Below are positions 6,745-64,000 of a stretch of DNA of 64,000 nucleotides, piece after piece. This stretch comes from Antedon mediterranea (taxonomy: Eukaryota > Animalia > Echinodermata). The first letter of the stretch is position 1, and each line of letters begins with the position of its first letter. Made by a program: the position numbers and the translations under genes. The notes under the pieces were generated by a model, which ran no database searches, had not been told where the DNA came from, and saw nothing but the letters and a program-made list of their open reading frames with translations. Where the stretch lies: NCBI RefSeq assembly GCF_964355755.1, contig NC_092671.1, forward strand, positions 40,620,304 through 40,684,303, read 5' to 3'.

Positions 6745-8945
6745 TATCACTGTGCTCAAGTATATGAAAATGACTATAGTTGAGAACAGTGTTAAACAGA
6801 ATCGTGTACATTAATGTTTTTTGTTGTATATTGTTAAGTTTATCCTATTCTTTATCACTGTGCTCAAGTATACCAAAATGACTATAGTTGAGAACAGTGG
6901 TAAACTGAATCGTACATTAATGTTATTTGTTGTATATTATTAAGTTTATCCTATTCTTTATCACTGTGCTGAAGTATACAAAAATGACTATAGTTGAGAA
7001 CAGTGTTAAACGGGATCATACCTTAATGCTATTTGTTGTATATTGTTAACTTTATCCTATTCTTTATCACTGTTCTCAAGTATACCAAAATGACTATAGT
7101 TGAGAACAGTGTTAAACTGGATCGTACATTAATGTTTTTTGTTGTATATTGTTAAGTTTATCCTATTCTTTATCACTGTGCTCAAGTATACCAAAATGAC
7201 TATAGTTGAGAACAGTGTTAAACGGGATCGTACATTAATGTTTTTTGTTGTATATTGTTAAGTTTATCCTATTCTTTATAACTGTTCTCAAGTATACCAA
7301 AATGACTATAGTTGAGAACAGTGTTAAACTGGATCGTACATTAATGTTTTTTGTTGTATATTGTTAAGTTTATCCTATTCTTTATCACTGTGCTCAAGTA
7401 TACCAAAATGACTATAGTTGAGAACAGTGTTAAACGGGATCGTACATTAATGTTATTTGTTGTATATTATTAAGTTTATCCTATTCTTTATCACTGTGCT
7501 CAAGTACACCAAAATGACTATAGTTGAGAACAGTGTTAAACGGGATCGTACATTGATGTTATTTGTTGTATATTGTTAAGTTTATCCTATTCTTTATCAC
7601 TGTGCTCAAGTATACCAAAATGACTATAGTTGAGAACAGTGTTAAACTGGATCGTACATTAATGTTATTTGTTGTATATTGTTAAGTTTATCCTATTCTT
7701 TTTCACTGTGCTCTAGTATACCAAAATGACTATAGTTGAGAACAGTGTTAAACGGGATCGTACATTGTTGTTGTATATTGTTAAGTTTATCCTATTATTT
7801 ATCACTGTGCTCAAGTATACCAAAATGACTATAGTTGAGAACAGTGTTAAACGGGATCGTACATTATTGTTATTTGTTGTATATTGTTAAGTTTATCCTA
7901 TTCTTTATCCCAATGTGCTCAAGTATACCAAAATGACTATAGTTGAGAACAGTGTTAAACGGGATCGTACATTAATGTTATTTGTTGTATATTGTTAAGT
8001 TTATCCTATTCTTTATCACTGTGCTCTAGTATACCAAAATGACTATAGTTGAGAACAGTGTTAAACGGGATCGTACATTAATGTTATTTGTTGTATATTA
8101 TTAAGTTTATCCTATTCTTTATCACTGTGCTCAAGTACACCAAAATGACTATAGTTGAGAACAGTGTTAAACGGGATCGTACATTGATGTTATTTGTTGT
8201 ATATTGTTAAGTTTATCCTATTCTTTATCACTGTGCTCAAGTATACCAAAATGACTATAGTTGAGAACAGTGTTAAACTGGATCGTACATTAATGTTATT
8301 TGTTGTATATTGTTAAGTTTATCCTATTCTTTATCACTGTGCTCTAGTATACCAAAATGACTATAGTTGAGAACAGTGTTAAACGGGATCGTACATTGTT
8401 GTTGTATATTGTTAAGTTTATCCTATTATTTATCACTGTGCTCAAGTATACCAAAATTACTATAGTTGAGAACAGTGTTAAACGGGATCGTACATTATTG
8501 TTATTTGTTGTATATTGTTAAGTTTATCCTATTCTTTATCAATGTGCTCAAGTATACCAAAATGACTATAGTTGAGAACAGTGTTAAACGGGATCGTACA
8601 TTAATGTTATTTGTTGTATATTGTTAAGTTTATCCTATTCTTTATCACTGTGCTCTAGTATACCAAAATGACTATAGTTGAGAACAGTGTTAAACGGGAT
8701 CGTACATTGTTGTTGTATATTGTTAAGTTTATCCTATTATTTATCACTGTGCTCAAGTATACCAAAATGACTATAGTTGAGAACAGTGTTAAACGGGATC
8801 GTACATTATTGTTATTTGTTGTATATTGTTAAGTTTATCCTATTCTTTATCAATGTGCTCAAGTATACCAAAATGACTATAGTTGAGAACAGTGTTAAAC
8901 TACATCGTACATTAATGTTATTTGTTGTATATTGTTAAGTGTATT
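6745..8945 (-). repeat. 106-bp satellite array, ~21 copies, inverted relative to 2890-4745 (right arm of fold-back)
   Basis: Unit CCAAAATGACTATAGTTGAGAACAGTGTTAAAC.GGATCGTACATTAAT is the reverse complement of the left-arm unit. Confidence 0.95.
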
Positions 8946-10272
8946 CTTTATTCTTATTAATTGTACTAAATTATTAAAAGAAACGGTAGTAAGCATAACA
9001 TTTCCCCACTCCTACATTAGCATGGTAGGACATTGTAATGGTCGCAGGTGGCTCAACTTTATTACTGCAATGGGATGGACATGGTCCTACTGCCACCTTA
9101 CCATCCAATAGGATTCCAGTAAATTTCCTTTACTACCAATCATAATTCAGTAATAAATTACCCCTTAAGTTAACAAGGAAATCAGCCTATCCCATTATAC
9201 CGGTAGGCTTCGTCGTACAGGCGTACTGCGGTAATAGTTGAGAATTCTCAACTAGCCAATTTGGTATATTTTATATACCTGCATATTTCGTGTAAAATCA
9301 AAGAAGTAATATTGTCCATGTGGTAGGGCGCCGCCATAAGTGTGGATGTATCTGGGATGTATACAACTTTTTGTGAAGGTTTCACTAATCAAATGCTGGA
9401 CCACCGGAGTATTTTCCGATGATAAAAATGTTATCAACTACATGCCAACATCATGTTAAGTACTATTTGAATATTTAATTGTTCGCGTGACCGGGCGTGT
9501 TGGTGTTTACGCGTTTTCACGAAGGATAGTTTAATAATATTCCTATATTTAACTTGTTTCTGGTAAAACAAATAAATGTTAATGACATTTAACATTTTCT
9601 CCTATTAATAACATGTGTTTTATACTAATTTATATCATAAAAACAATACTTAATTTACCGGGCGTACAGTAGTACACGGCAATGGTAAAGAATAGGCCGT
9701 GCTGAGTAATATTCGTTGATTTTTGGTGTTGCTGTGTTAGGCCTTTTTTGTGAACTAACTTAGCATGTTAGTAAATAATTGTCTGTAAAAGAATAAACAC
9801 TAGTTTGTTAATAAATATGTATTATAAAAGAGTTTACAATTGCAAAAACTATCATCATAATTCTATTTAATGTGACATGTATCATGTCTATTAAATCAAG
9901 TCTTATTTAGTATGTATACATCCGCCCTTATGAGGGCGGGCATCACTCACTGGAGCTCTCTGTTACAAATTTCTCATGCAAAAATCGCGGAATACTCATT
10001 CTTGTGATACTCTTTGGTAAAATCGATGATTTTGATTTTGGAGCCTCTCACGGGGAGAGCAGCAAACACACATAAAAAGACGTCGTGAGTCATTCTTCGT
10101 TTTGTGTCTAAATTGAATGATTTCACAATACAAGTTGATATAAGTAGCTTTGTTTTATAAGCATACACAGTTCGTCTTGAAGACTGCAACAGTAGTAAGT
10201 ATATTGTTATATATTAGCATAGGCCTAGCCCTAGACTAGGCGAGTTTAGATTTTGGTAATGTAGCCTCTCTC

Positions 10273-40600: not shown

Positions 40601-43600
40601 GCCTAAGACATTAATGACTGGCTTTAGGCAAAAATAAACAAGTAAGATGCCAGAGGCAAAAGCTCACGCTAAATAGGGCTCGTTCTCCTAATGAACCCAT
40701 TCAATCCCTATCCACAATGGTACACTACACCAACCATCTCGTGATGAATCAGTATTAAAAGTTTGTATGCATTGCGACAATTTTTTGCGTTAATTGACCA
40801 ATCACGATAGTGTCACAGACGTTCCAACCCTCCCGAATTTCTACGGTAGCCTCCCGAATTTTCCTCCAATCTCCAGAATGTTGGTTTATTAATGTAAGTA
40901 ATTTATGATTTAAAAAAAACATTTTTCAAATCTATGTTCACCATTGTCTGAATGATGTCTTTTAGAAGGTTTATTTCTGTATTTTATACATATTAATTAA
41001 CTAGGCTTACATCAGATTTTACTAAAATGTGCGATGCACCTCTGATCACATTGAAAGTCTGATTATGAGGGTATTTTGTGTAATAAGTAATAAAGCGGGT
41101 GTAAGATTTTAAATATTTTTAGAAGATTTTAAATGTTTAAAAGTTGTCTAATAATCTATATATAAATTATGGTTAATTCTGACATAGGCGAGCACAATGC
41201 AAAAACTTCGGTACAAATCTCCGCCTTGGATACCTACCTTATCTATCCGAGATGTACCGCGAAACGTAGATTTGATAACATTAGTGTTCACGCCGACGCT
41301 ATTGTTCCATATTTATATCTTAGGAAGATATTATAAAGAGTTTTTTAACAACATTTATGATTTCAACATTAGATTTTCCTCTCAATTTCAATTCTTCCCG
41401 GTCAAAGTAATTTCCGGGTTTAAGATAAGTTCACCTTGCAACAACCTTAGTTTCAAATATTTTCTCTCTTTTAAACACAAGGGAGCAGTTAAAATAATAG
41501 ATTTGACCCTAAAGGTGACTGGAAACAGGCACTTTCCATCAATCAATACAGTGTCCCTTTGGAAGACGAAAAATATGTCAGAATTAACCATAATTTATAT
41601 ATAGATACCGCGCGTGTGTGAAGGTACAGTAGTTAAATAATAGGAATTATACTGCAAATTAAATATACGCCAAAGAATCAGAATATATTGTGGGGAATAG
41701 TATTATAAAATTACATAGGGAGATTTGATGATAAGACATTTTTCGAGTGAAATCCTGATAGCTGAGTTTTATTGAGTAAGCTTGCAGGAATAACTGTAGG
41801 CTATCTTCCTGTGTCCCATTAGGACCAAGATGTCTGCCCATGTTGCAAGCCGTAATGTCTTCTTTCTTGGGCCGACTCTGTCACGGCAGTTAGTTTCAAA
41901 AGATGATTAAATTAAATAATGTATTAATAATTATTAGGATGGTATTCATTTGAATAAACGCCTCTCCAATAAAACATCACTTTGAATAATAAACCCTCCC
42001 CCCCCCCCAACCCAACTATCTAATAAACGTCCATCCACATATTTATAATAAAACAATTATACTATTTGTAGTAGAATTCACCGCACTGTTATCTACAATT
42101 TATTAAGCATTTGTTATTCTTTTTTAGCACTTTTCATATCTATTAGAGGATTTCATTTGATTATAAATGTTACCATATTATTAAAACTAAAAAATTTAAC
42201 ATATATCCCTCGAATAAGCACCTCCCTCAAATGACCTCCGCCTCCCCAAAGGGCCCTACCAAACAATAAAAACTATACTTTAAAATGTTATTAATCATCT
42301 AAAACACTGTGATACAAAGTAGTTTAGTTTTACGAATGTCAAGCATTTTCAATAATGGTAACCGACAGAAAACGTATAAGGAGAACATTATCATTCCGAG
42401 AACCATCGTCTACTATTCCTAGAGGGGGAGCGAGCGAAGCATTAACATTAAACTCAGATTTTCGCCCAGTTTCTAACCTTCATACCTTAGGTAAGATTAT
42501 TCAGTATCTAACCATTTCCTGTCTACTTTATGAAACATATCAGTCGGTATAAATAATATAATAAATCTCATAGTACGGAAACTGCTCTATCGCGTTAAAA
42601 GTGATATATTATGTTGATGAAACCTGATAAAGGGTGATATATTATGCTATAGTTTTGGCAGTTTTTTTTTATCCTTTTGATACGATAGATCACGACATCC
42701 TGATCAGTCGTATGCAGAATGAATTTGGCATTACTGGCTTTTCTTTATTAATTGGGTAGATAGAAATAAAATTACTTCAGCATTACATAAAAGGGAGTTT
42801 TTTATTGGCGTCTTTCTTGATTTTTCAAAGTCAGTCAAATACCACAATACTTCTATCACAATTAATTGATTGGTTTAAAAGTTATTTATTATTTACCTCC
42901 GCCAAGGAGGTATCTCTAATCGATCGCGACGTGTGTCTGTTTATTTGATTGTCTGTCTGTTTGTTAGCAGAATTACTCAAAAAAGTTATTGCAAGAAATA
43001 TGTGGCCAAGGACCAATTTTTGACCACTTTTTAGTTTTATTTTCAGACCTGCTAGTGTTAAAGCGAATTTACGATTTGCACCGAATAGAGGTGTTTTTCA
43101 CATGTACAAACTGTTTTACATATAAACACAATATACACAAATAAACGTCGTAGAAGTGGTGTATTATTGTCATGCAGTACATTTGAAATCGCTGAAATTA
43201 TACTATGTATTCGAGAACCATCCCTAGTTGTTAAAATTGTTATAAAATACTAAAAAATATTTTAGAAGTGATTATATCGAATTACAGTACTTAAAAATGC
43301 TTATATATTAAAATGCTTATATATTATGCGTGGTGCGTGTGAGTGTTAGGCTACTATTATGTAGTTTCTTTTATATTATATGTAGGAATACTTTAACTTT
43401 CCAACTTGTATCTTTAAAACCTTATTTCATGTTTTTTTCTTTATGATAATGTTTTATTTTTCAAAGGGTCTTACGACTACAGACAATTCCTTGTCTCTGT
43501 AAGATTCATGTAACATATATATTAAATATCTAACATATTGTAGATTCTGTAAGTAAATGCACGGTGTTATCATTGAGTTTGTACGATATTGAGTTAAATT

Positions 43601-46600
43601 TTGTGCAAACTTCCATTTCGTATGGTCTCTATCTCCTTGGCTTTGCGCGCGCGGTCTTGTTGGCTTTAGAAACACCTATCAATAGAGGGCGACATTAAAA
43701 AAATATACTGTAGAAATTTGTTTGGCGTGCGAGGTCAATATACACTTACACTTACACTTACACTTAATGTTTGATGGAAATAGTTTAGGCTAGTGCCTAT
43801 TAGATTCCATTTCTAGCCGAAAATAGTTGTCAAGTCTAGACTTAAAGATGTTCACTGAAGAGGCTTGTATTACATATTCAGGCAGAGAATTCCAGTGATG
43901 TATGACTCTGATGGTAAAAAAGTTGACCCTGCACATAAGATTTCCTCTAAGTTTTGGACGATATAGTTTTAAGCTGTGTCCCCTGGTTCTGATGTTGTGA
44001 GACAATTTAAATAAATCTTTTGGGTCAATATCCTCAAAGCCTTTCAAAATTTTGAAAGCTTCAATCAAATCTCCTCGTAGTCTTCTTGTCTCTAATGGTT
44101 GAAGATCAAGATATTCTAACCTTTTTTCATATGGTAGATCACTTATTGACTTGACCATCTTTGTAGCTCTTCTCTGCACCTTCTCCAAGATTTCTTTGTC
44201 TTTGTTATAGTAAGGAGACCAGGACTGTATACAGTATTCCATATGTGGACGGATGTATGCCTTGTACATGACCTGAAAACTTTCTTTGTCAATATTTTTG
44301 AATGTTCTTTTGACAGTTCTCATACTATTCGTCGCTCTAGCTGCTGCTAGTAGTATATAATATAGTAGCTGCATCAAATTTGTTTTCGGTATTTAGATAT
44401 TGTTATTTTGTTTTCGGTTTGTTTTCGGTTGTTTATGGTTGTTTTCAGTTGTTTATGGTTGTTTTCGGTTGTTTTCGGTAATTAGACTGACCGTAAAAAT
44501 CAGTTTGATTAGCAATATTGCTAAACAAAATTTTAAAATGAAATTTTTCACTGATCATATAAATAGGCTGGCCTAGGCTAGGCCTAGGGCCTATACCTAG
44601 CCTCTAGCCTAGAGGCTAGGCCTACTGATACTAGTAGGCTAGAAGACAGGATCACCGCAAACACACTCAGCAGACTCTACTACTATTGAAATTGATTGGT
44701 GGACTTCTGACACTGTGGGTGAGTGAGTGCGAGTCATGCATGTTGTGAGGCCCTTAAGGCCGCCCATACGTATGACGTAGGTAGTTGGAGAGAAAGAGAA
44801 ACAATTACGTGCGTAGACCGCCATATTGTTCGTTTGACTTGAGTTGTTATTAAAGTTAGTTATAGCACATCTTTGTGTATAGTTTTATTATTGTGGTATT
44901 GACGAAGCAACATACCCAAACATGGCGCTGCGAGCAATCAAAGTTCAGCCTCCCAAGCTAGATTTAGCGAGCGACAGACTGTCGGAGTTTCGTGTATGGA
45001 AAACTCAATGGGAAGCGTACATTGCTGTCACTGAACTTGATCAACAGCCCAACCAAGCACAGGTAAACGTGCTCAGTTTGAGCCTTTCTGTTGACACTAT
45101 GAAGATTTTAATGAACCTAGGCCTTACTCAGGCTCAGCTCAAGTCACCCACGGACATTATTACGGCGTTGGAAACGCATATTCAAGGTCAACTGAACGAA
45201 TCCGTTGAACGGAAAAAGTTTCGATCCAGGGTACAAAAACCTGGCGAAGAATTTGACGACTACCTTGTTAGCCTACGCGACCTTGTACGCGAATGCAACT
45301 TCTGTAATGATCAATGTGCTAAGAATGCCATAAGAGATCAAATCATCGAGGGACTCTCTGATAATACAATTGTTGAAAAACTCTTAGCGATTGACAAATT
45401 GGATTTGACCAAAACCATATCAACGGTACGTGCATTAGAGGCCGCTAAACGACAAAGGGATGAAATAAATCCTCAACAGCTAAGCCTAGACCAGACAAGC
45501 ACTACTGCGGCTGTAAGAAAGTCCAATAATATGAGAAAACATCACAGTAAAAAACCAGAAAAGCAGCATATTAATAAGCAGCAGGGTAAGCAACAACCAT
45601 CTTCTAGTAATAATGATAAATGTAACTACTGTGGCAAGGTCCACCAACGTGGAAGACAGCACTGCCCCGCTGCAGATGCTACGTGTAATACGTGTAGGAA
45701 ACGCGGACATTTTTCAACCGTATGCCGCTCTAAGCCCCAAAATGGAGCGATACGGATCAATACGTGCAGTCAGTACGATCAGTTTACACATGCACCTCGA
45801 ACCACAGTAATGATAACACACAGGGAACATGCCGTAGACGCTCTTGCTCTTCCTGATTCCGGTTCAGATATTTGCCTCGCTCCTACATCACTGCTCGAAC
45901 AAATTAATGACCACGTAGAGAATCTCATCCCTTGCAAAATACGACCTGAAACTGTCGAAGGTAGCAGAATTCAGATTGCAGGAAAATTACCACTAATCGT
46001 TTCAACCGACGAACGTTGCGTGAGTGTTACAATTTATTTTTCTGATGACATCGATGACATTATTTTATCATGGAATGCATCAAAGCAGTTGGGATTTCTC
46101 TCACCAGCTTACCCTGAGCCACTGTGTCACGCAAACGTTGCATCAGTTACTAACATTAGTCCGATTGCTGCGCCACGTTTCAATCTGACTAACTTGTCCA
46201 AGGAATTTCCAGAAGTGTTTGATGGTATAATTCGCTCGATGCCTGGTGAAAAATTCACAATCAAGATAGCAGATGATGCTAAACAATTTTGTGTTAGCAC
46301 CCCACGAAAGATACCGTATGCCTACAATGATAAGCTGAAAGCAGAGCTCGAAACGCTTGAACGCCAAGGCATCATTGTCAAGACTACTGAACATTCCAAT
46401 TGGTGTGCTCCAATCGTCATTGCACCAAAGAAGGACACTGAAAAAATCAGAATGTGTGTTGACTTATCTCAACTAAATAAAAGTGTAAAACGCGAGTATT
46501 ATCCTCATACTACTCCACAGGAAGCTGTAGCAGATATTGCTGCATCCGATGCTCAGTTCTTTACTGTAATCGATGCGCTGAAAGGATATCACCAAATTCC

Positions 46601-49600
46601 ATTAGAGAAACAGAGCCAATCTTATACAACGTTCATAACTCCCTTCGGACGGTATAAATATTTGCGAGCACCATACGGTATCACATCTATTTCGGACCAT
46701 TATAATCGTCGAATGGATGAGGCGCTTCAAGGTTTAACTAATCATAGACGCATAGTCGACGACGTGGTTATTTTCAGTAAAACCAGACAAGAGCATCAGA
46801 AAGTGGTTACAGAATATCTCAAGAGATGTCAACAACACCATATTGCGCTGTCAACTGATAAGGTACAGTTATGTAAAACTACAGTTGCCTTTGCAGGTTT
46901 CACCTTATCACGTAATGGATATTCGATCGGTCCTAAAACCATGGAAGCGATCAGTAAATTTCCAAAGCCCAGTTCCAGATCAGATTTGAGGGTATTTAGT
47001 GGACTTGTAAACCAACTTGCCTCCTCGACTAGTAAGATCGCAGAGCTGATGACTCCACTACGACCCTTGCTATCTGAAAAGAACGAATTCATGTGGAATG
47101 CTGTTCATGATCAAGCTTTTGATAACGTTAAGAATGAACTTTCTATAGCACCCACAATGGCGTTTTTTGACTTAAAAAAGCCAACGAGATTGACCACTGA
47201 TGCCTGCAGACATGGCATTGGCTATATTCTATCTCAAAGACATGATGGTGATGAGTGGAAAACAGTACAGGCCGGTTCGCGATATCTGACAGATGCAGAA
47301 AGCAGATACGCAGTGATAGAACTTGAAATGTTAGCCGTTGCTTGGGCAGCACAGAAATGCTATATGTTTTTAGATGGATTACACCATTTTCAAATAGTCA
47401 CTGATCATCATCCGCTTATTCCTATATTGAACACTCATAGATTAGATGAAATCGTCAACGTCAGATTACAACGACTTAAAACTAGAATGTCTCGATACAA
47501 CTTCACTGCACAGTGGGTTAAAGGCAAAGACAACTACGCAGCAGACGCACTGTCACGTTACCCACATGCGAATCCTTCGAGTACAGATGAATTAGCTGAA
47601 CAATTAGCATTCAACGGTCAAGAATCTAGTCCAATACCTACATTGGCTGCCATTCGAGCAGCCACGGACAGTGTGGACGCTGATAATGCCAGATTGCTCG
47701 AAATATTGAAGGCCGCAAATGATGACAATGAATATCAGACACTGAAACAAATGGTATCTACAGATGACTTCCCAGCAACGAAGACGAGTATGCCTGATAA
47801 TCTAAAGAAATACTGGTGTATTCGAGCTGAATTGTCAGTTGAACAAGACCTTCTTGTATATGGATGCAGACTATTTGTTCCAGAGGCCCTTCGACCAATC
47901 ATGTTAGACAAGCTTCATCATGCACATCCTGGAATTCGAAGAGCTCAAGACAGGGCCCGTATGATTTTATATTGGCCGAACATTGATCGAGATATCGAGA
48001 ACATGACTTCAAACTGTAAGTTTTGTCAGGATAACTTACCTGTCAATCCCAGAGAACCACTGATTCAGAAACCCCAACCAACCAGACCCTTCCAGCAACT
48101 TGCAGCAGATTTTGCCTTTGTGAATGGTAGAAATTATCTGATCGTGGTTGATTGCCTAACTGACTGGCCAATTATTGAAGATATGGGTAAGAATACTACT
48201 ACAGCAGCTACGACTGAAAAGCTAAGGGACATATTCTGTAATGTTGGTGTACCTGAAGTATTTTGGTGCGACGGAGGACCACAATTCACCTCCAATGGTT
48301 TTAAACAGTTCGCTAATAACTGGCAGTTCACCATAAAATACAGCTCACCTTATCACCAACAATCTAATGGGAAAGCTGAAGCTACAGTCAAATCCATGAA
48401 AAAGCTTATCCGCTCATCATCTTCAAATCATACATTACCAGACAAAGAACAGTTAGCAAAAGCGCTCTTGCACTACAGAAATATTCCATGTAGGAAAGAT
48501 GGATTATCTCCTGCTATAAAGTTATTTGGACGACCTATTCAGGATACACTACCAACGCACCATCGCGCCTTTAATGCCGACTTCCAGAAAGATATTAAGG
48601 AAGCCCAAATCATCTTGGAAAAGGGGAAGGTGAAAGAGAAACAATACTTTGACCTTCACACCAAAGAACTGTCAGATTTAAAGCTTCATAACCATGTTGC
48701 AGTATATAATCATTTAGATAAACTGTTTAACATTTACGGAACAATAATTGATATAAAACCAAACAGGAGATACTTCATCAAAACATCGGGGGGAAGGGTG
48801 TTAGTTAGAAACCGACGCTTTATACGTAAACGTACGCCGCAATCTATTGGCTTTGTACCAGTGGACCTGCCCAAAAGGCATAGGTATATGCGCAGCACCA
48901 TTAAGGCCCCTGCAAGATTGATTGAAGATCCAAAATGGCCATAAGCACTTTGGATCTAAGGGGAGGTGTGAGGCCCTTAAGGCCGCCCATACGTATGACG
49001 TAGGTAGTTGGAGAGAAAGAGAAACAACGTGCGTAGTGTAGTGCCGCTACACAGATGCTTAAGCGGAGCGCGTCGCTCTAAACACCTGGACGCGCTCCGC
49101 CGTGTGTATCTTGGAACGTCAAGTACGTTAGGGACACTTGAGAAGTCGACGACGGAAACTAAACCTATATTATTACTACTCACTTATTATTATCATACAA
49201 AGACTATTACAATGGTGAGTATTTTACGTTGTAGTCTTTTATCGTAGTTAAGGAACTAAACCAAGAGACTAGCAATCTCTTTATTGGCGACGAGGATTAA
49301 AATTAAACGCGATATTTTTCTGGCGAAATATGACGCCGAAAATACGCGAATCTGGACGTGCGTTGTTTATATTTACATTCAATGTATCGGCCCTCGCCAA
49401 TTCATCACCGTCTCGAGGATAAGAACGTGAATGTTTCTTATAAGTTCATGTTCTCTCCGAGAGTTGGGGATGAATAGTAGATTAGGATTTATTATTTTTA
49501 TTTTTTATATTTAATATTCGACGAATGAACGATTGGCCTATACTAGATGAAACTGTAGTATAAGAATATTATTATTCATGCTCGTGACATGAATTTCATG

Positions 49601-52600
49601 CTCGTGACATGAATGTTCACGCTCGTGACGTGAATGGGTTTTGTATGTTAACCCGCTGGACTCGTGATTCCAGAACGAAACGACATGGCCCGTGTTTCAT
49701 GTCCGATTTCGGAAAATATACGATTAGGTTAGGCTAGGAAGTATTAGTTATCATATTAGTGGGCCAGTTGTTTACGTCGTTCCTTCACTGGAAGTCGGCA
49801 GTGTTGGAAGAATTTATTTATTTATTTTATTAGTTTATCATGAACCGCAAAAATAAATTAAACCTTTGCCTTTTTTGAAAAAAAAAAAAATTTCATTAGA
49901 GGGAAGATGGTTGAAAATATACTGGTCAATTGTATTAGGCCTAGATCCTCCGAGTCTTGGGCGATAGTTTTTCGATATTGTTTCAGATCTCATCCAGGTC
50001 TTATTCCATTCGAACAAACTGCCGCGCAGTTCTTGGACATCATACGATTGGCTAGGCTACAGCAACCAATCATATCATTGCATTCGCATAGTCGCTACCT
50101 GAGAGGGTCGTGCAGCGCGAGCTGTGCACTATCCAGGGAATGAAAATGCAAGCGATGATGACGCGGTTACGTGCGTACTCTGATTGGTTGAGCAATGAAA
50201 GAATTCTATGTACTAATAGTTCTGATTGGCTATTTACTTTACGGAAACATCCTATTTTTAGAATACTATTTTTAGGATGTGGATGTGAGTTTTAGTTATA
50301 CGCACGCCGGTACGCTCTGGCGAATGCTCAGAATTCTATTATTACGCAGTTATTTACTGTTGGGTTGTAGTTGTTTTAGGAATCAATGAAGTGGACATTT
50401 ATTTGAGATTATAAAGAATTTATTATTAGCTTACATTGTGATATTGTTCTGTGTGTTCTTTCTAAATGTGTCTACTGTATTCATTGGTGACTAATTCAAT
50501 CGAAAGATTCCAACGGTAAATTTAGTTCAGTCACAGTATAACTCGGTAATTCTGAACGAGTATACTAGAAGAAGGGCGAGTTTTATGGTAAACTAGTTCG
50601 CTCAATGTAAGAAGACTGAGGGCAATGATTCGAGGTCGGAACGAGTTCTTGCACGCGATCGGGAGACGTAACATGAGTTGCGGATCTAGATAGCTATGGC
50701 ATCAACTACGTGCTTTATTCGGTGTTTGCTTATAACGAAGAAAGCACCGGCTCTGTTAAAAAAAAAAATAATAATGCGCCGACATCGGCGAAAATCATAA
50801 AAGGATAGTACTGACGAGGTCTTTGAAGGGTCTGATCTTGAAGTTAATCCTAATAATCAGGTGACTTCAAAGAATGCGTCGATTAGTTTTAACGGGAAGG
50901 AGGAGCAGTTATTCCTGACGTTAACTCTGTGTCGAATGTAACCACGGATAGGTGGTTTAATTCCTGTTCCAACTACGGTACTCCTAATGGGGATATCTGA
51001 AATCGCGACTCTCATTATCCGGGCGATGACAACATGCGTTTCGATGAACGAGCTGGCGGCGAGTCCAATAGGTTTGTGCCTATGGAACGCGGTCGAGTTC
51101 CTTGGCGATCAATAAATCGTCAAGGGGGACGCAACAGATCGAGAGTCCGAACGACGGTATCCTAATCGAGGTCGTAGAATGGGAATGTCGCCACAGGGGT
51201 ACATCGACGGTAATCGCTATAAACGCTACTCGGACGATGTCGGTCAAGTTCGGACTGATTGTCGAGGTTTCGATTACAATGATCGAGATCGCGGTAATGA
51301 GGACAATACGAACGAGTACGTCCGAAGAGAGAGTAATGGCGGAAGTTTCGGACGTGATCCGCGCTGAGTTCATTATGTGGATAGGGACCACTTGCGTGGT
51401 TGATACGGTCATAATGAAGAATGGCGAGGTGAGCGTCGGAAAAGACTACTTTTCCGCCCTCAGAGAAACCTGGAATTTTTCGGTCAAAATGACTGGTACA
51501 TTTTCTGGGATAGATTTGAGGGGTATGCCCGAATTAGTGGATGGAACCTGGCGGAGAAGAAGGAGGCTTTTCACTTAGGTAAGAAGGGGAAAGCAGCCAT
51601 GTACTACTTACGTTGTACATTCTTCACGGCAGTGACATCACAAATAACTCGGTAACTAGCTCTGAAGAGATGTTGGAACTCCTCTGGCGGAAACGATGAT
51701 CACTATTTGTTACAGGCGCCAGAGTTTTCGTCCCAACAATTTGTAATCGAGGGGTAGAAATACTATCTTGTACTAAACTTGTGTTTTGCCTCTTAATGTT
51801 TTACAGATGGATAACTGCACTACTTCCGATCGAGTAACGGTGGAGGAGGAATTGTTCCTGCTGCAGGTGGAAGACTTCCCGCCGTTGGGCAAACCAGCTG
51901 CGAAACGAAAGTCTCCACCTTCACCTACTGGATTGGAAGAAGATGATGTGGCGATGGAGGTCGGGGACCCAGATCCGCCAGTAGTTGAGGGCAGAGAGAC
52001 GCCAGAGGTCTTGGCAGGATCGCCGGAGAGGCCAAAGTCCCCCTCCATTTTTCGTAAAGAGTTGCTTCCCGCCGCGCCAGCCGTGAAGGTATGGCGAACT
52101 CCAGGAAGTAAGGAGTCGGACTTTGCGTGCCGAGACGTCCGTCTCGTTGGTACGGCGACCAGTGCTGTTCCACCTAGTGCTGGGGCGGTACCAAAAGTTA
52201 AATCTCAGAGAAAGGCCGACAAACGGTCGAAAGACAACAAAAGACCTCATCCTGAAGGCGGTCAGATGGAATCGGGTAAACGGTCACGTCGGGCATTCCT
52301 GTGTCCAGTGGCAGGATGTGGCCGGGTGCCCGAAAACCCAAAACAACACCTGGCGCACCACATACCGCCATTCATGACGGAAACATCGCCGGAGGTATCG
52401 TCGACCACCTCATCTCGGCGCTGGAGTTTCATCCAGGAGTTAGTGAAACTCGTTCCGGAGTGCGGCGGGAGTGTCACCAAGGCGGTAGCACTTTTCAACG
52501 CCGAGGGGAGAATCCAGCCTGGATTCTTCTTCACCAAATCTCTAAGGAAGATGATGGAGTCGATGGGCGAGGCGGCGGGGCTCGAGATGCCCGAGTCGAA

Positions 52601-53965
52601 CACTCTATCGCCGTTAGTGTCACCGCTGGGTCTGCTCCACACTCGGTGTCTCCTTTTCCTGGTGGCGAGAGCCACTAGGGATAATAAGGGGGCATTTGTG
52701 GAGCTGTGCCAGAGGTATGGTAGGCCTACCTCGGCGGAGCCCAGACGCCGTCGATTTCCCAAGCCAGCTGGACCACTACGTCAACGGACCGGACCATCAT
52801 CACGCCAAGCACGGTGGCAACCGAACGTGGAAAACAACATCCATTCACCCACGCCACTGTTATGCCAGTTAAGGCGGGCCGACAGAGTTGCTCTGCGGTC
52901 GGCATTCAATGCCAATCGGGAGGTGGTGGAGCGTTTGGCTCAGCCGGGAAGTGGCCAGCTGAGGGCAGCGGCGGTTAGGATGTTGGAGGGATTCTTGGAA
53001 AACCTCCACTTCCACGCCCAGTTTGCCTATGAATAGGTTAAAAAAAAAAAAAACAAAAAAAAAATCCAAGACCAAATTAATGAAAATTTATTTAAAGTAA
53101 TTTTAAAATTAATTCCAATTAGTTCATTTTTTTAAACAAAATTCTTATCGGGTTCTTGGTAGTTTCTTTTTCTGGAATTCTATGTATGTATGTTGTGTTA
53201 TTGTTGTGTTTAAAAAAAAGAAAAAAAAAAGAAGAAAAATGAAGTGGAAGAAAAGAAAGAAAGAGCAAGTACGTGTGTAGAAGAACAAGAGGGAAGACAA
53301 AAGAAATAAAACAAGGAGGAATGTAGTGCCGCTACACAGATGCTTAAGCGGAGCGCGTCGCTCTAAACACCTGGACGCGCTCCGCCGTGTGTATCTTGGA
53401 ACGTCAAGTACGTTAGGGACACTTGAGAAGTCGACGACGGAAACTAAACCTATATTATTACTACTCACTTATTATTATCATACAAAGACTATTACAATGG
53501 TGAGTATTTTACGTTGTAGTCTTTTATCGTAGTTAAGGAACTAAACCAAGAGACTAGCAATCTCTTTAGTAGACCGCCATATTGTTCGTTTGACTTGAGT
53601 TGTTATTAAAGTTAGTTATAGCACATCTTTGTGTATAGTTTTATTATTGTGGTATTGACGAAGCAACATACCCAAACACATGTGATGTGTTTTATAATAC
53701 TAATAGGCCCTAGTTTCACTCTTTTTTGTTCACTCTATAGATACAGTAGCCTACAACAACAGATAAGCCTTGGCTAGGCTAGCCCCCAGGCTAGCCTAGT
53801 AGGGCCTAGCCTTAGCTAGGCCTAGGCCTATCGTATCGAAAGGAAGGAGGTGACAATTATTACCGTAATCATATCTGGATTTCTGTCGGTGAATTTTCCT
53901 CCATTACTGCCAATTGCAGCTGCAGTTGTTCCTCTTGATTGTGCGCTATAACGTTCCCTTTCCAT
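25611..53965 (-). CDS. EFHB: EF-hand domain family member B (CFAP21), 566 aa; exons 53965-53864, 36198-36139, 35810-35667, 28902-28722, 28368-28128, 27878-27572, 27362-27047, 26725-26544, 25778-25611
   Basis: Nine GT-AG exons, phases consistent, 1701 nt; EFHB-type motifs RVFYGKAND, RAPLGKSHDQ, VSKRVDDFRE, YLRGKERQR, EF hands DKNGDGRIDINE and DANNDGTIDYNE, FANFLNWKDKM, YGVPTIRSDL. Confidence 0.92.
27901..28058. mobile_element. MITE family A copy in an EFHB intron
   Basis: AGCTCTATCTACACTGTCAAA...TTTGATAGTGTAGACAAAGCT with TTA on both sides. Confidence 0.8.
29006..29046 (-). other. Degenerate minimal hammerhead-ribozyme motif (Penelope-like remnant)
   Basis: Minus strand CTGATGA-TGAT-GATC-AAAA-GATC-GAAACGTTG: core boxes, stem II GATC/GATC and palindromic AACGTT stem III. 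Confidence 0.5.
29166..31068. repeat. 40-bp minisatellite, ~48 copies, with interspersed 35-bp deletion variants
   Basis: Unit TACAGTAATGCTAACACTATGGTTAGTATCAACCTGTATG. Confidence 0.97.
31552..33447. repeat. 46-bp minisatellite, ~41 copies
   Basis: Unit GTTACATGTCAAGTAGTTGTAAAGTGTGCTACATAAAATAAAACCA; period 31552 to 31598. Confidence 0.97.
34085..35345. repeat. 38-bp minisatellite, ~33 copies
   Basis: Unit TAATACCTTTGCTTACTAATCTAACTGTATAGTATACT. Confidence 0.97.
36675..36728 (-). CDS. Candidate alternative first coding exon of EFHB (MSMFQPNLREHTRCPKLQ)
   Basis: ATG, 18 open codons, consensus donor CAG|GTAAGT in phase 0, matching the phase-0 exon at 36198. Confidence 0.4.
36801..36818 (+). 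other. Orphan tRNA-Phe primer-binding-site-like 18-mer
   Basis: TGGTGCCGAAACCCGGGA is the complement of the metazoan tRNA-Phe 3' end TCCCGGGTTTCGGCA-CCA. Confidence 0.7.
38380..38770. repeat. 21-bp two-variant tandem repeat
   Basis: GAAATTGTGCTACCTCTTTGA alternating with GAAATTGTGCTAACCATTCGG; explains the overlapping periodic ORFs. Confidence 0.9.
38915..39640 (+). mobile_element. Helentron/DINE-1-like (HINE) non-autonomous element
   Basis: Duplicated core AGTTCACTATGTCGGTCGGTCTGTC..GGTCCGGTATCACTATGCA (38931, 39544), GTCT/GTCG microsatellite, T-rich ends. Confidence 0.55.
41155..42440 (+). mobile_element. Non-autonomous Helitron, 3'-truncated copy
   Basis: A|TCTATATATA 5' end; reverse complement of 62243-63541; stops inside the terminal hairpin (GAGCGAGCGAAGC). 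Confidence 0.8.
42441..42890 (+). mobile_element. Degraded CR1/L2-group LINE reverse-transcriptase remnant
   Basis: Frameshifted fragments DFRPVSNLHTLGKII, STETAL, FDTIDHDILISRM, GVFLDFSK. Confidence 0.65.
42890..42990 (+). mobile_element. 5' end of a Helentron/HINE-like repeat
   Basis: TTTACCTCCGCCAAGGAGGT hairpin followed by a GTCT/GTTT microsatellite and GTTAGCAGAATTACTCAAAAA. Confidence 0.5.
43741..44345 (-). mobile_element. 5'-truncated CR1-group LINE (RT C-terminus plus microsatellite tail)
   Basis: ORF 43790-44377: YKAYIRPHMEYCIQSWSP, LEKVQRRATK, RRLRGDLIEAFKILKG, TRGHSLKL, WNSLP; 3' tail (TAAGTG)n at 43741-43767. Confidence 0.9.
44922..48944 (+). CDS. Gag-Pol polyprotein, 1340 aa (CA, two Cys-His knuckles, PR, RT, RNase H, IN)
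   Basis: CNYCGKVH..HC and CNTCRKRGHFSTVC, protease LPDSGS, RT DALKGYHQI..IVDD, RNase H TDAC..ELE..TDH, integrase HHAH..CKFC, D-D-E (ADF, CDGGPQF, NGKAE). Confidence 0.96.
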   Translation: MALRAIKVQPPKLDLASDRLSEFRVWKTQWEAYIAVTELDQQPNQAQVNVLSLSLSVDTMKILMNLGLTQAQLKSPTDIITALETHIQGQLNESVERKKFRSRVQKPGEEFDDYLVSLRDLVRECNFCNDQCAKNAIRDQIIEGLSDNTIVEKLLAIDKLDLTKTISTVRALEAAKRQRDEINPQQLSLDQTSTTAAVRKSNNMRKHHSKKPEKQHINKQQGKQQPSSSNNDKCNYCGKVHQRGRQHCPAADATCNTCRKRGHFSTVCRSKPQNGAIRINTCSQYDQFTHAPRTTVMITHREHAVDALALPDSGSDICLAPTSLLEQINDHVENLIPCKIRPETVEGSRIQIAGKLPLIVSTDERCVSVTIYFSDDIDDIILSWNASKQLGFLSPAYPEPLCHANVASVTNISPIAAPRFNLTNLSKEFPEVFDGIIRSMPGEKFTIKIADDAKQFCVSTPRKIPYAYNDKLKAELETLERQGIIVKTTEHSNWCAPIVIAPKKDTEKIRMCVDLSQLNKSVKREYYPHTTPQEAVADIAASDAQFFTVIDALKGYHQIPLEKQSQSYTTFITPFGRYKYLRAPYGITSISDHYNRRMDEALQGLTNHRRIVDDVVIFSKTRQEHQKVVTEYLKRCQQHHIALSTDKVQLCKTTVAFAGFTLSRNGYSIGPKTMEAISKFPKPSSRSDLRVFSGLVNQLASSTSKIAELMTPLRPLLSEKNEFMWNAVHDQAFDNVKNELSIAPTMAFFDLKKPTRLTTDACRHGIGYILSQRHDGDEWKTVQAGSRYLTDAESRYAVIELEMLAVAWAAQKCYMFLDGLHHFQIVTDHHPLIPILNTHRLDEIVNVRLQRLKTRMSRYNFTAQWVKGKDNYAADALSRYPHANPSSTDELAEQLAFNGQESSPIPTLAAIRAATDSVDADNARLLEILKAANDDNEYQTLKQMVSTDDFPATKTSMPDNLKKYWCIRAELSVEQDLLVYGCRLFVPEALRPIMLDKLHHAHPGIRRAQDRARMILYWPNIDRDIENMTSNCKFCQDNLPVNPREPLIQKPQPTRPFQQLAADFAFVNGRNYLIVVDCLTDWPIIEDMGKNTTTAATTEKLRDIFCNVGVPEVFWCDGGPQFTSNGFKQFANNWQFTIKYSSPYHQQSNGKAEATVKSMKKLIRSSSSNHTLPDKEQLAKALLHYRNIPCRKDGLSPAIKLFGRPIQDTLPTHHRAFNADFQKDIKEAQIILEKGKVKEKQYFDLHTKELSDLKLHNHVAVYNHLDKLFNIYGTIIDIKPNRRYFIKTSGGRVLVRNRRFIRKRTPQSIGFVPVDLPKRHRYMRSTIKAPARLIEDPKWP
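51030..51620 (+). pseudogene. Decayed gag remnant of the nested element
   Basis: R/D/G-rich region with stops and frameshifts, then DWYIFWDRFEGYARISGWNLAEKKEAFHLGKKGKAAMYY from 51491, typical of a Gypsy capsid N-terminus. Confidence 0.7.
51807..53036 (+). CDS. Accessory ORF of the nested LTR element, 409 aa, unknown function, C2H2-like motif
   Basis: GC-rich uninterrupted ORF; acceptor TTTTACAG directly before the ATG at 51807; acidic/Pro-rich then basic N-half; CPVAGC-x9-HLAHH; helical C-half. Confidence 0.8.
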   Translation: MDNCTTSDRVTVEEELFLLQVEDFPPLGKPAAKRKSPPSPTGLEEDDVAMEVGDPDPPVVEGRETPEVLAGSPERPKSPSIFRKELLPAAPAVKVWRTPGSKESDFACRDVRLVGTATSAVPPSAGAVPKVKSQRKADKRSKDNKRPHPEGGQMESGKRSRRAFLCPVAGCGRVPENPKQHLAHHIPPFMTETSPEVSSTTSSRRWSFIQELVKLVPECGGSVTKAVALFNAEGRIQPGFFFTKSLRKMMESMGEAAGLEMPESNTLSPLVSPLGLLHTRCLLFLVARATRDNKGAFVELCQRYGRPTSAEPRRRRFPKPAGPLRQRTGPSSRQARWQPNVENNIHSPTPLLCQLRRADRVALRSAFNANREVVERLAQPGSGQLRAAAVRMLEGFLENLHFHAQFAYE

Positions 53966-62227: not shown

Positions 62228-63541
62228 CTAGAGGGTGAGCTCGCTTCGCTCGCTCCCCCTCTAGGAAGTGTAGACGATGGTTCTCGGAATGATAATGTTC
62301 TCCTTATACGTTTTCTGTCGGTTACCATTATTGAAAATGCTTGACATTCGTAAAACTAAACTACTTTGTATCACAGTGTTTAAGATGATTAATAACATTT
62401 TAAAGTATAGTTTTTATTGTTTGGTAGGGCCCTTTGGAGAGGCGGAGGTCATTTGAGGGAGGTGCTTATTCGAGGGATATATGTTAAATTTTTTAGTTTT
62501 AATAATATGGTAACATTTATAATCAAATGAAATCCTCTAATAGATATGAAAAGTGCTAAAGAAGAATAACAAATGCTTGGTAAATTGTAGATAACAGTGC
62601 GGTGAATTCTACTACAAATAGTATAATTGTGTTATTATAAATATGTGGATGGACGTTTATTAGATAGTTGGGTTGGGGGGGGGGGGGTTATTATTCAAAG
62701 TGATGTTTTATTGGAGAGGCATTTATTCAAATGAATACCATCCTAACAATTATTAATACATTATTTAATTTAATCATCTTTTGAAACTAACTGCCGTGAC
62801 AGAGTGGGCCCAAGAAAGAAGACATTACGGCTTGCAACATGGGCAGACATCTTGGTCCTAATGGGACACAGGAAGATAGCCTACAGTTATTCCTGCAAGC
62901 TTACTCAATAAAACTCAGCTATCGGGATTTCACTCGAAAAATGTCTTATCATCAAATCTCCCTATGTAATTTTATAATACTATTCCCCACAATATATTCT
63001 GATTCTTTATGGCGTATATTTAATTTGATCTTTATTAATTTGCAGTATAATTCCTATTATTTAACTACTGTACCTTCACACACGCGCGGTATCTATATAT
63101 AAATTATGGTTAATTCTGACATATTTTTCGTCTTCCAAAGGGACACTGTATTGATTGATGGAAAGTGCCTGTTTCCAGTCACCTTTAGGGTCAAATCTAT
63201 TATTTTAACTGCTCCCTTGTGTATAAAAGAGAGAAAATATTTGAAACCAGGTTGTTGCAAGGTGAACTTATCTTAAACCCGGAAATTACTTTGACCGGGA
63301 AGAATTGAAATTGAAATGAAAAACAAATGTTGAAATCATAAATTTTGATAAAAAACTCTTTATAATATCTTCCTAAGATAGAAATATGGAACAATAGCGT
63401 CGGCGTGAACACTAATGTTATCAAATCTACGTTTCGCGGTACATCTCAGATAGATAAGGTAGGTATCCAAGGCGGAGATTTGTACCAAAGTTTTTGCATT
63501 GTGCTCGCCTATGTCAGAATTAACCATAATTTATATATAGA
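62228..63541 (-). mobile_element. Full-length non-autonomous Helitron, 1314 bp
   Basis: Minus strand A|TCTATATATA...GAGGGGGAGCGAGCGAAGCGAGCTCACCCT-CTAG|T: TC start, subterminal GC hairpin, CTAG end, A|T target, no TSD. Confidence 0.85.
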
Positions 63542-64000
63542 TGAGTATACAGTACTTTCCTTTACGACGCCTGAGGGAATAGACACTTGTGGAACGACAC
63601 AGAGATTGGAATGTTCCATTCATCGCAAATCAATACATTTGTATAAACGTATATTAAATCTATCAAAATAGTATTTTTTAAAGAAAATCGGCCTGTCTTC
63701 AACATTATGATACTGTACTCGAGCTGTTCAACCGGTTTTCAGCTATTAAAAACAATTATCCTAGGAGAAGATAGGAAAATGCGAAGTATCCTCGTATTAT
63801 TGTGTGCAGGTATTTTTCATGAGGACATCCATTAGACAGTGTATACCACGATCGAAAAAAACCCCTATTTGGGAAAAATCGTTGAACCTAAATTCGTTTT
63901 AATTGTCAATAAGTAATTATCTAACTAAATTTAATTAGTACACAGGGTTACATCAGGTGGTTAAAATCAGTACCGAGATTCTAACCAACTTTATATACCA

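Follow-up and report, generated by a model that had tools for sequence, protein, structure and literature searches.

What kind of gene stays open in an LTR retrotransposon that has no pol and a broken gag, and is it kept for a reason? The question is raised by a Gypsy insertion in the window, by which we mean the whole 64-kb stretch of Antedon mediterranea DNA that was analysed. A first-pass annotation described the insertion as a recent, non-autonomous element holding a spliced cargo gene that selection retains. Our preferred reading, held with moderate confidence, is of a young pol-less feather-star Gypsy that was likely copied in trans. Its open reading frame (ORF) would be the native third gene (ORF3) of its lineage, likely expressed by splicing, and its predicted product is a nucleic-acid-binding regulator that would aid expression of its own family. 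The features concerned were as follows.

44744..53678, + strand: host Gypsy with intact 1340-aa gag-pol (44922-48944), 179-bp LTRs and a 5-bp target-site duplication (TSD) CATGT; its 3' LTR is split by the insertion
left 49033..49036 and right 53569-53572, + strand: target-site duplication GTAG
49037..49283, + strand: 5' LTR of 247 bp, TG...TA, containing an ATG (49212-49214) and the splice donor GTGAGT (49215)
49215..51806, + strand: predicted GT-AG intron of 2592 nt, removing the primer-binding site, leader and gag remnant (from splice signals and a sister RefSeq model)
49285..49297, + strand: primer-binding site (PBS) TGGCGACGAGGAT, within the predicted intron
51119..51757, + strand: gag remnant, comprising a low-complexity N-terminal part and the start of the capsid region, with three internal stops (clade gag profile, E 3.8e-8)
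51765..51806, + strand: branch-point-like TACTAAAC, pyrimidine tract and CAG acceptor
51807..53036, + strand: ORF3, 409 aa
53297..53321, + strand: purine-rich tract preceding the 3' LTR (PPT)
53322..53568, + strand: 3' LTR, same sequence as the 5' LTR

The two LTRs (49037-49283 and 53322-53568) were exactly 247 bp each with no differences between them, and they ended in TG...TA rather than TG...CA. The 4-bp duplication GTAG was present on both flanks, so that the identical LTRs, PBS, PPT and TSD reported in the first-pass annotation were all found. The PBS is presumably that of tRNA-Ser(GCU). A G+C-rich hairpin of about 12 bp was predicted at ~49064-49101 in the first half of the LTR, and also in the 3' LTR. 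The 409-codon ORF was fully open and no pol remnant was found in the element by tblastn, both as previously described. Gag was indeed broken, but the remnant, earlier placed at 51491, is larger: its frame spans roughly 51119-51757 and is interrupted by stops at 51365, 51401 and 51653. A profile of 386 positions, made from the gag of clade relatives, matched it at positions 47-129 only (E 3.8e-8). Pfam searches with the ORF, with the gag pieces and with the core alignment gave no match, and the gag piece gave none when searched against longer proteins. With C-terminal gag and pol missing and ORF3 open, the element is non-autonomous, as had been proposed.

The insertion was also said to lie in the LTR of another retrotransposon, and this was borne out by the interrupted 3' LTR (48967-49036 and 53569-53678) and CATGT duplication of the host Gypsy, whose 5' LTR lies at 44744-44922. 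The host LTR pair was identical at 176/176 aligned bases, plus one 3-nt gap; because the LTRs differ by just this gap, the host is also very young. It is presumably Mag-like, and the ATG of its gag-pol overlaps the LTR end and PBS. Elsewhere in the window, inverted copies (96.6%) of a 1.3-kb MITE- or DNA-transposon-like element lie at 41154-42440 and 62243-63542, and this element has a 33-bp inverted repeat at 41154-41186/41574-41606. An open frame of 200 aa on the - strand (43790-44392), with no Pfam match, resembles what we take to be the C-terminal part of a CR1/L2-type LINE ORF2. The stretch ~2800-35300 holds several tandem arrays, each homogeneous, whose units measure 106, 71, 28, 40/35, 46 and 38 bp; the two 106-bp arrays are oriented toward each other.

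To what does the ORF belong? A phmmer search of 1.84 billion proteins recovered 16 proteins at E<=1e-3, all via about residues 155-310. Invariant residues of this shared domain were C, C, H, H, P, R, P and H, and in 5/16 matches a Pfam TatD_DNase domain followed downstream. DNA context was taken from two metagenome contigs (five short loci excluded) and from 19 contigs of one contaminated metagenome-assembled genome (MAG). The core was followed by a TatD-like match in all 21 contig loci, and pol lay upstream on the same strand in 18, the remaining three beginning at ORF3; the pol match at L035 covered 40 aa only. Loci L001, L004 and L008 had the order pol then ORF3, with gag ahead of pol in L001 and L008, and the pol domains of L001 and L004 were PR-RT-RH-IN-PHD by Pfam. 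Because its homologues lie behind pol or before TatD, the ORF is read as the lineage's own gene: its homology makes it the native ORF3 in a Gypsy clade of marine invertebrates that has gag, pol-PHD and an ORF3 ending in a TatD nuclease. The earlier view of a cargo gene was therefore given up, since full-length relatives hold the homologous ORF3 behind pol.

The element shares with this clade its LTRs, TSD, PBS, PPT, a homologous gag and an ORF3 with a C-x4-C...H-x3/4-H finger and helical core. The PR-RT-RH-IN-PHD order is known from the relatives, the element itself being without pol, and neither a Pfam nor a TatD-like match to a TatD domain was found in the element. A tree of 33 cores, midpoint-rooted only and excluding L031, L035, L038-L040, P0012 and P0033, contained a 100/99 branch separating the window ORF, five other crinoid proteins and a partial ENA protein from the rest. 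None of these seven crinoid-type cores was accompanied by TatD, and the full-length members end in a helical hairpin. Judged from these domain contents, the crinoid branch has lost TatD. Three other proteins that lack TatD in their records (P0009, P0015, P0016) look truncated, because their close relatives P0026 and P0034 have it. Within L001, a 396-aa opposite-strand ORF with no Pfam match (8658-9848, - strand) interrupts the TatD domain, and the start of gag (31-1770) weakly resembles a helix-hairpin-helix domain (HHH_3, E 7e-4).

Viral and GTDB contigs scanned with the core pattern gave no match. In the 'Sedimenticola sp.' MAG G001 (L008-L040), 20 ORF3-core matches fell on 19 contigs, most with a eukaryote-type Gypsy pol upstream, and the NCBI name for such MAG proteins (also P0010, P0011, P0012 and P0033) is a bacterial 'TatD family hydrolase'. 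ORF3 cores in symbiont MAGs are likely host-animal contamination. No description of a TatD-ORF3 Gypsy clade was found in the literature, within a search coverage that leaves aside Repbase, most subscription journals and supplements. The accessible parts of PMC12440569 and PMC8220671 hold no description of the element's ORF3.

We also examined the protein. Residues 1-155 of the window ORF3 were modelled with low confidence. A basic patch, a C-x4-C...H-x3-H finger and a helical core occupy about 160-305, followed by an Arg-rich linker and a helical hairpin (357-408). AlphaFold pLDDT was mostly >90 in the window core, and the core of the Pecten homologue reached pLDDT 96 and pTM 0.89. Compared with solved folds, the Pecten core, used as the query in place of the window core, gave a best Z of 3.6 and no Foldseek match at E<=0.001. 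A fold search with the full model gave no match, Z values of up to 6.7 reflecting the generic C-terminal hairpin only. PDB sequence searches returned nothing beyond weak C2H2-finger matches (E about 1), and the ESM Atlas gave for P0001 a sub-threshold lead only (DUF3435, 0.77). The ORF3 domain is previously undescribed, with no Pfam entry or structural match; for a modelled core, an absent solved-fold match does not prove a new fold.

The window protein is also shorter than its crinoid homologues, with 36 aa between two anchors vs 126-132. Missing is a ~115-aa domain present in four of them (P0002, P0003/P0018, P0005 and P0007), where it is beta-rich, precedes the zinc finger and has no Pfam, Atlas or PDB match. 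It may resemble an SN/OB fold, a resemblance that no search (Atlas, PDB) supported. Net charge of the window protein is +15, and most of the 16 homologues have a basic patch ahead of the finger. No Env features were found: there is no signal peptide or TM segment, the best 19-aa hydropathy window (1.54) falling inside the folded core, no Pfam match, and an N-terminus that is acidic and proline-rich. The earlier statement that the protein is not an Env accordingly stands. From the basic charge, the basic patch with its C2H2-like finger and the absence of a TM segment, we predict a nucleic-acid-binding regulator.

How would such a gene be expressed? The first-pass annotation pointed to a donor in the LTR and an acceptor before the ORF, and both signals are present, delimiting the 2592-nt GT-AG intron. 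In the donor ATG|GTGAGT the GT begins at 49215 (LTR position 179), 70 nt before the PBS, and TTTTACAG|ATG supplies the acceptor at 51806/7. On the + strand of the window ATG|GTRAGT occurs three times, two of these being the element's LTRs, and the acceptor ranks second by pyrimidine content among the 103 YAGs within the element. The sole close protein of the ORF is XP_071966282.1 (Antedon mediterranea RefSeq), which is 98% identical, has 410 aa and starts MMDNC, exceeding the genomic ORF by one Met. The codon preceding the ORF ATG is CAG in the window, and it was unchanged among the best 40 of 88 rows from X5 and X6. (X1, X5, X6, X7 and organism B are our labels for where related sequences were found.) The MMDNC start is strong but indirect evidence for a product of the LTR ATG joined to the ORF; we call it indirect because the first Met of the model is attributed to the LTR by inference.

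Relatives carry comparable signals. For 11/15 relatives an acceptor-like YAG was found no more than 15 nt from the ORF3 ATG, vs 400/2390 other ATGs (p=2e-6), with six loci that have no clean pol-ORF3 boundary excluded. A GTRAG lay 22-88 nt upstream of the PBS in 4/5 relatives vs 277/2582 background windows (p=6e-4), counted within 100 nt upstream of PBSs chosen by eye and with L034 excluded. Both p values are too strong, as the rules were set after the sequences had been viewed and the loci are related. An acceptor before ORF3 and a donor upstream of the PBS are, on these counts, a trait of the clade. Production of ORF3 from a spliced message that joins the LTR ATG to the ORF, as first suggested, is well supported but indirectly so, by the RefSeq start and by the relatives' donors and acceptors. 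Contigs of X5 cover the predicted intron evenly and look like DNA; a 49214-51807 joint was absent from X1, X5, X6 and X7, a result that does not bear on splicing.

Sister sequences bear on whether this is a family or a one-off deletion, the check that the first-pass annotation had called for. One X5 contig covered the gag remnant and the ORF without a break, with 63 differences over 1590 nt, one X1 contig spans 51283-52582, and organism B gave cover in 30/30 bins. The pol-less form was seen in X1 and X5, and probably in organism B; a TSD was read for the window insertion alone. Given this cover, the pol-less form would be shared and older than the window insertion. At the level of sequence the pol-less layout is that of a family, the same gag-to-ORF junction recurring in single contigs of X1 and X5. 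Related gag sequences in X5 and X6 extend beyond the remnant's match, with loose ends at 51544 and 51639, and these diverged gag sequences are candidate helpers. The host Gypsy was rejected as a helper: its pol is only 24% identical to clade pol and its TSD is 5-bp, not 4-bp, which makes it unlikely to serve.

In the preferred reading, transcription would start in the LTR upstream of 49212, and the LTR most likely makes two RNAs, one spliced and one unspliced. The spliced RNA, having no PBS, would be mRNA only. The unspliced RNA would keep the PBS, the PPT and both LTRs and be packaged and copied by the Gag/Pol of a related, diverged family, the neighbouring host Gypsy presumably not being the helper. 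The ORF3 protein may then act on element DNA or RNA via its basic patch, zinc finger and helical core, for example in activation, escape from silencing or RNA handling. This last step is the weakest, and such an action would explain an open frame in still-moving copies while gag decays.

Selection to keep the ORF had also been claimed. The strongest competing explanation is that the frame is open only through incomplete decay or recombination with full-length relatives, its protein being useless to the element; we regard this as unlikely, if well worth weighing. On the same molecule, 3 internal stops interrupt the 213 codons of truncated gag and none the 409 of the ORF (p=0.04), which speaks against it. 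Among ORF differences in X5, 15/28 were non-synonymous vs ~70% expected (p=0.045), falling to 1/5 in the core (p=0.029); in X6 the count was 9/16 (p=0.17). These counts used 29 usable ORF rows from the best 40 of 88, and with several tests run they are a weak signal, which leaves room for a useless protein. The core is avoided by differences, again to the detriment of simple decay, and 8/10 amino-acid differences vs P0001 fell within the first 160 residues (p=0.011). In the best 12 of 104 indel rows for organism B, three ORF indels were each 3 nt and two in the gag remnant were 1-2 nt. The deletion, moreover, ends shortly before the branch point and acceptor, an arrangement that likewise argues against a useless frame.

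Some sister copies do have broken or deleted ORFs, as expected if the protein is useless. Near codon 183 the ORF of the main X5 copy is frameshifted by a 1-nt insertion, and deletion variants missing 51339-52138 (X1) or 51813-52931 (X6, X7) have lost the acceptor or most of the ORF, so the ORF is not required in every copy. The loss of two domains also favours that explanation, and loss of TatD and the ~115-aa domain fits erosion as well as streamlining. In rotifers, too, ORF3 variation within a genome looked neutral (section 3.6 of PMC5408684, in the part accessible). Decay after insertion is expected even under selection in the moving lineage, and for this reason the question leans toward retention. 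Selection is weakly supported on these data: the contrast in stops and the lean toward synonymous change favour the earlier claim, and the frameshift in the X5 copy and the ORF deletions in X1 and X6 count against it.

A further possibility is a Rev/Rex-like export adaptor, in which a strong LTR donor makes spliced RNA the default and ORF3 exports intron-containing RNA. The family would then have to retain its own copy for packaging, as ORF3 would be needed for export of its own unspliced RNA. The consensus donor G|GTGAGT upstream of the PBS, the Arg-rich segments with the +15 net charge, and a leucine-rich export-signal pattern at 393-402 are consistent with this, the pattern having an aligned C-terminal place in 4/4 full-length crinoid-type proteins compared. 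That pattern is degenerate, however: 12-40% of shuffled 30-aa tails match it and 13/13 scanned proteins have matches. The 393-402 segment is modelled as a plain helix and TatD-bearing relatives have no C-terminal tail, so that we rate an export role as quite doubtful. A bolder composite appears improbable as a whole. It holds that a marine-invertebrate Gypsy clade expresses ORF3 from a donor within the LTR and that in crinoids an export-signal-like helical tail took the place of the nuclease, giving a family-specific Rev/Rex-like or anti-silencing regulator of undescribed fold, needed so much that a gag/pol-dead family retains it by selection as its only gene and borrows all other functions.

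That the ORF is a host cargo or host-domesticated gene lying between LTRs is very improbable and largely refuted. Its RefSeq annotation is that of an ordinary uncharacterized gene, and the crinoid proteins P0002, P0003, P0005 and P0007 were not placed in a retroelement context here. Against this, every homologue with readable DNA is in Gypsy ORF3 position or directly before TatD, the gag remnant comes from the same clade, and the insertion is very young. A one-off deletion of an ordinary autonomous element, which the reading of an own TSD for a single insertion would allow, can be dismissed as barely credible, because the X1 and X5 contigs share the gag-to-ORF junction, the X5 copy is 4%-diverged and from another study, and the gag decay is older than the identical LTRs.

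We therefore return to a native ORF3 that is open, likely spliced and predicted to bind nucleic acid. The role of non-envelope ORF3 proteins for LTR retrotransposons is an open question. An element with no gag, pol or nuclease and with one small conserved domain is a natural deletion series, which points to the retained ORF3 domain as the part that matters and is directly testable. Retention of the third gene, if true, would suggest that ORF3 aids spread even for a parasite of a parasite. Public databases label relatives of ORF3 either host genes or, where they come from contaminated MAGs, bacterial 'TatD family hydrolases'.

Errantivirus env is made from a subgenomic spliced mRNA, and ORF3 would likewise come from a spliced message, but the element has no Env homology or features. 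The splice donors of delta- and spumaretroviruses lie in the LTR R region, and the element's donor is also inside its LTR. Friend SFFV, whose genome is pol-defective, retains a spliced 3' gene and depends on a helper; the element would do likewise, with no Env homology. For echinoderms, the accessible part of one survey reports no env-carrying Ty3/gypsy (PMC13524379). The sORF2 of the Drosophila MDG1 group was considered as a parallel and rejected, its transcripts showing no splicing in the part seen of PMC11952523.

A layout of this kind is known already. The non-autonomous LTR family TelKA2n of a bdelloid rotifer, Adineta vaga (Rodriguez, Kenefick, Arkhipova 2017; PMC5408684, as far as accessible), lacks C-terminal gag and most of pol and keeps ORF3, and is a precedent. 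The two are alike in having lost C-terminal gag and pol with ORF3 open, but the TelKA2n ORF3 is env-like, whereas the element's is a predicted soluble zinc-finger/helical protein with no TM segment. The same portion of that paper states that ORF3s are typically spliced and leaves non-envelope ORF3 activities in rotifers undemonstrated. It also describes the rotifer Juno and Vesta elements, with a DEDDy exonuclease or GDSL esterase ORF3. These resemble full-length members of our clade in placing a non-env ORF3 behind pol. The clade's full-length ORF3 also ends in a nuclease fold, TatD, of a different enzyme family, and the window branch has no nuclease and keeps the partner domain alone. LARDs, the general class to compare with, are kilobase-size LTR derivatives moved in trans (Kalendar 2004, via the accessible part of PMC6431247). 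The element is alike in size and in its probable movement in trans, but its long open ORF is its own gene and not trapped DNA; where a LARD's internal region has no coding capacity of its own, the element has a 409-codon ORF homologous to clade ORF3. With the ORF3-TatD clade (L001, L004, L008, L024-L040) the element shares the gag motif, ORF3 core, acceptor and donor upstream of the PBS, and several clade members have, as it does, non-CA LTR ends adjoining a TGGCG PBS. It differs from them in having no pol and no TatD, and in a C-terminal helical hairpin that is common only to its crinoid homologues.
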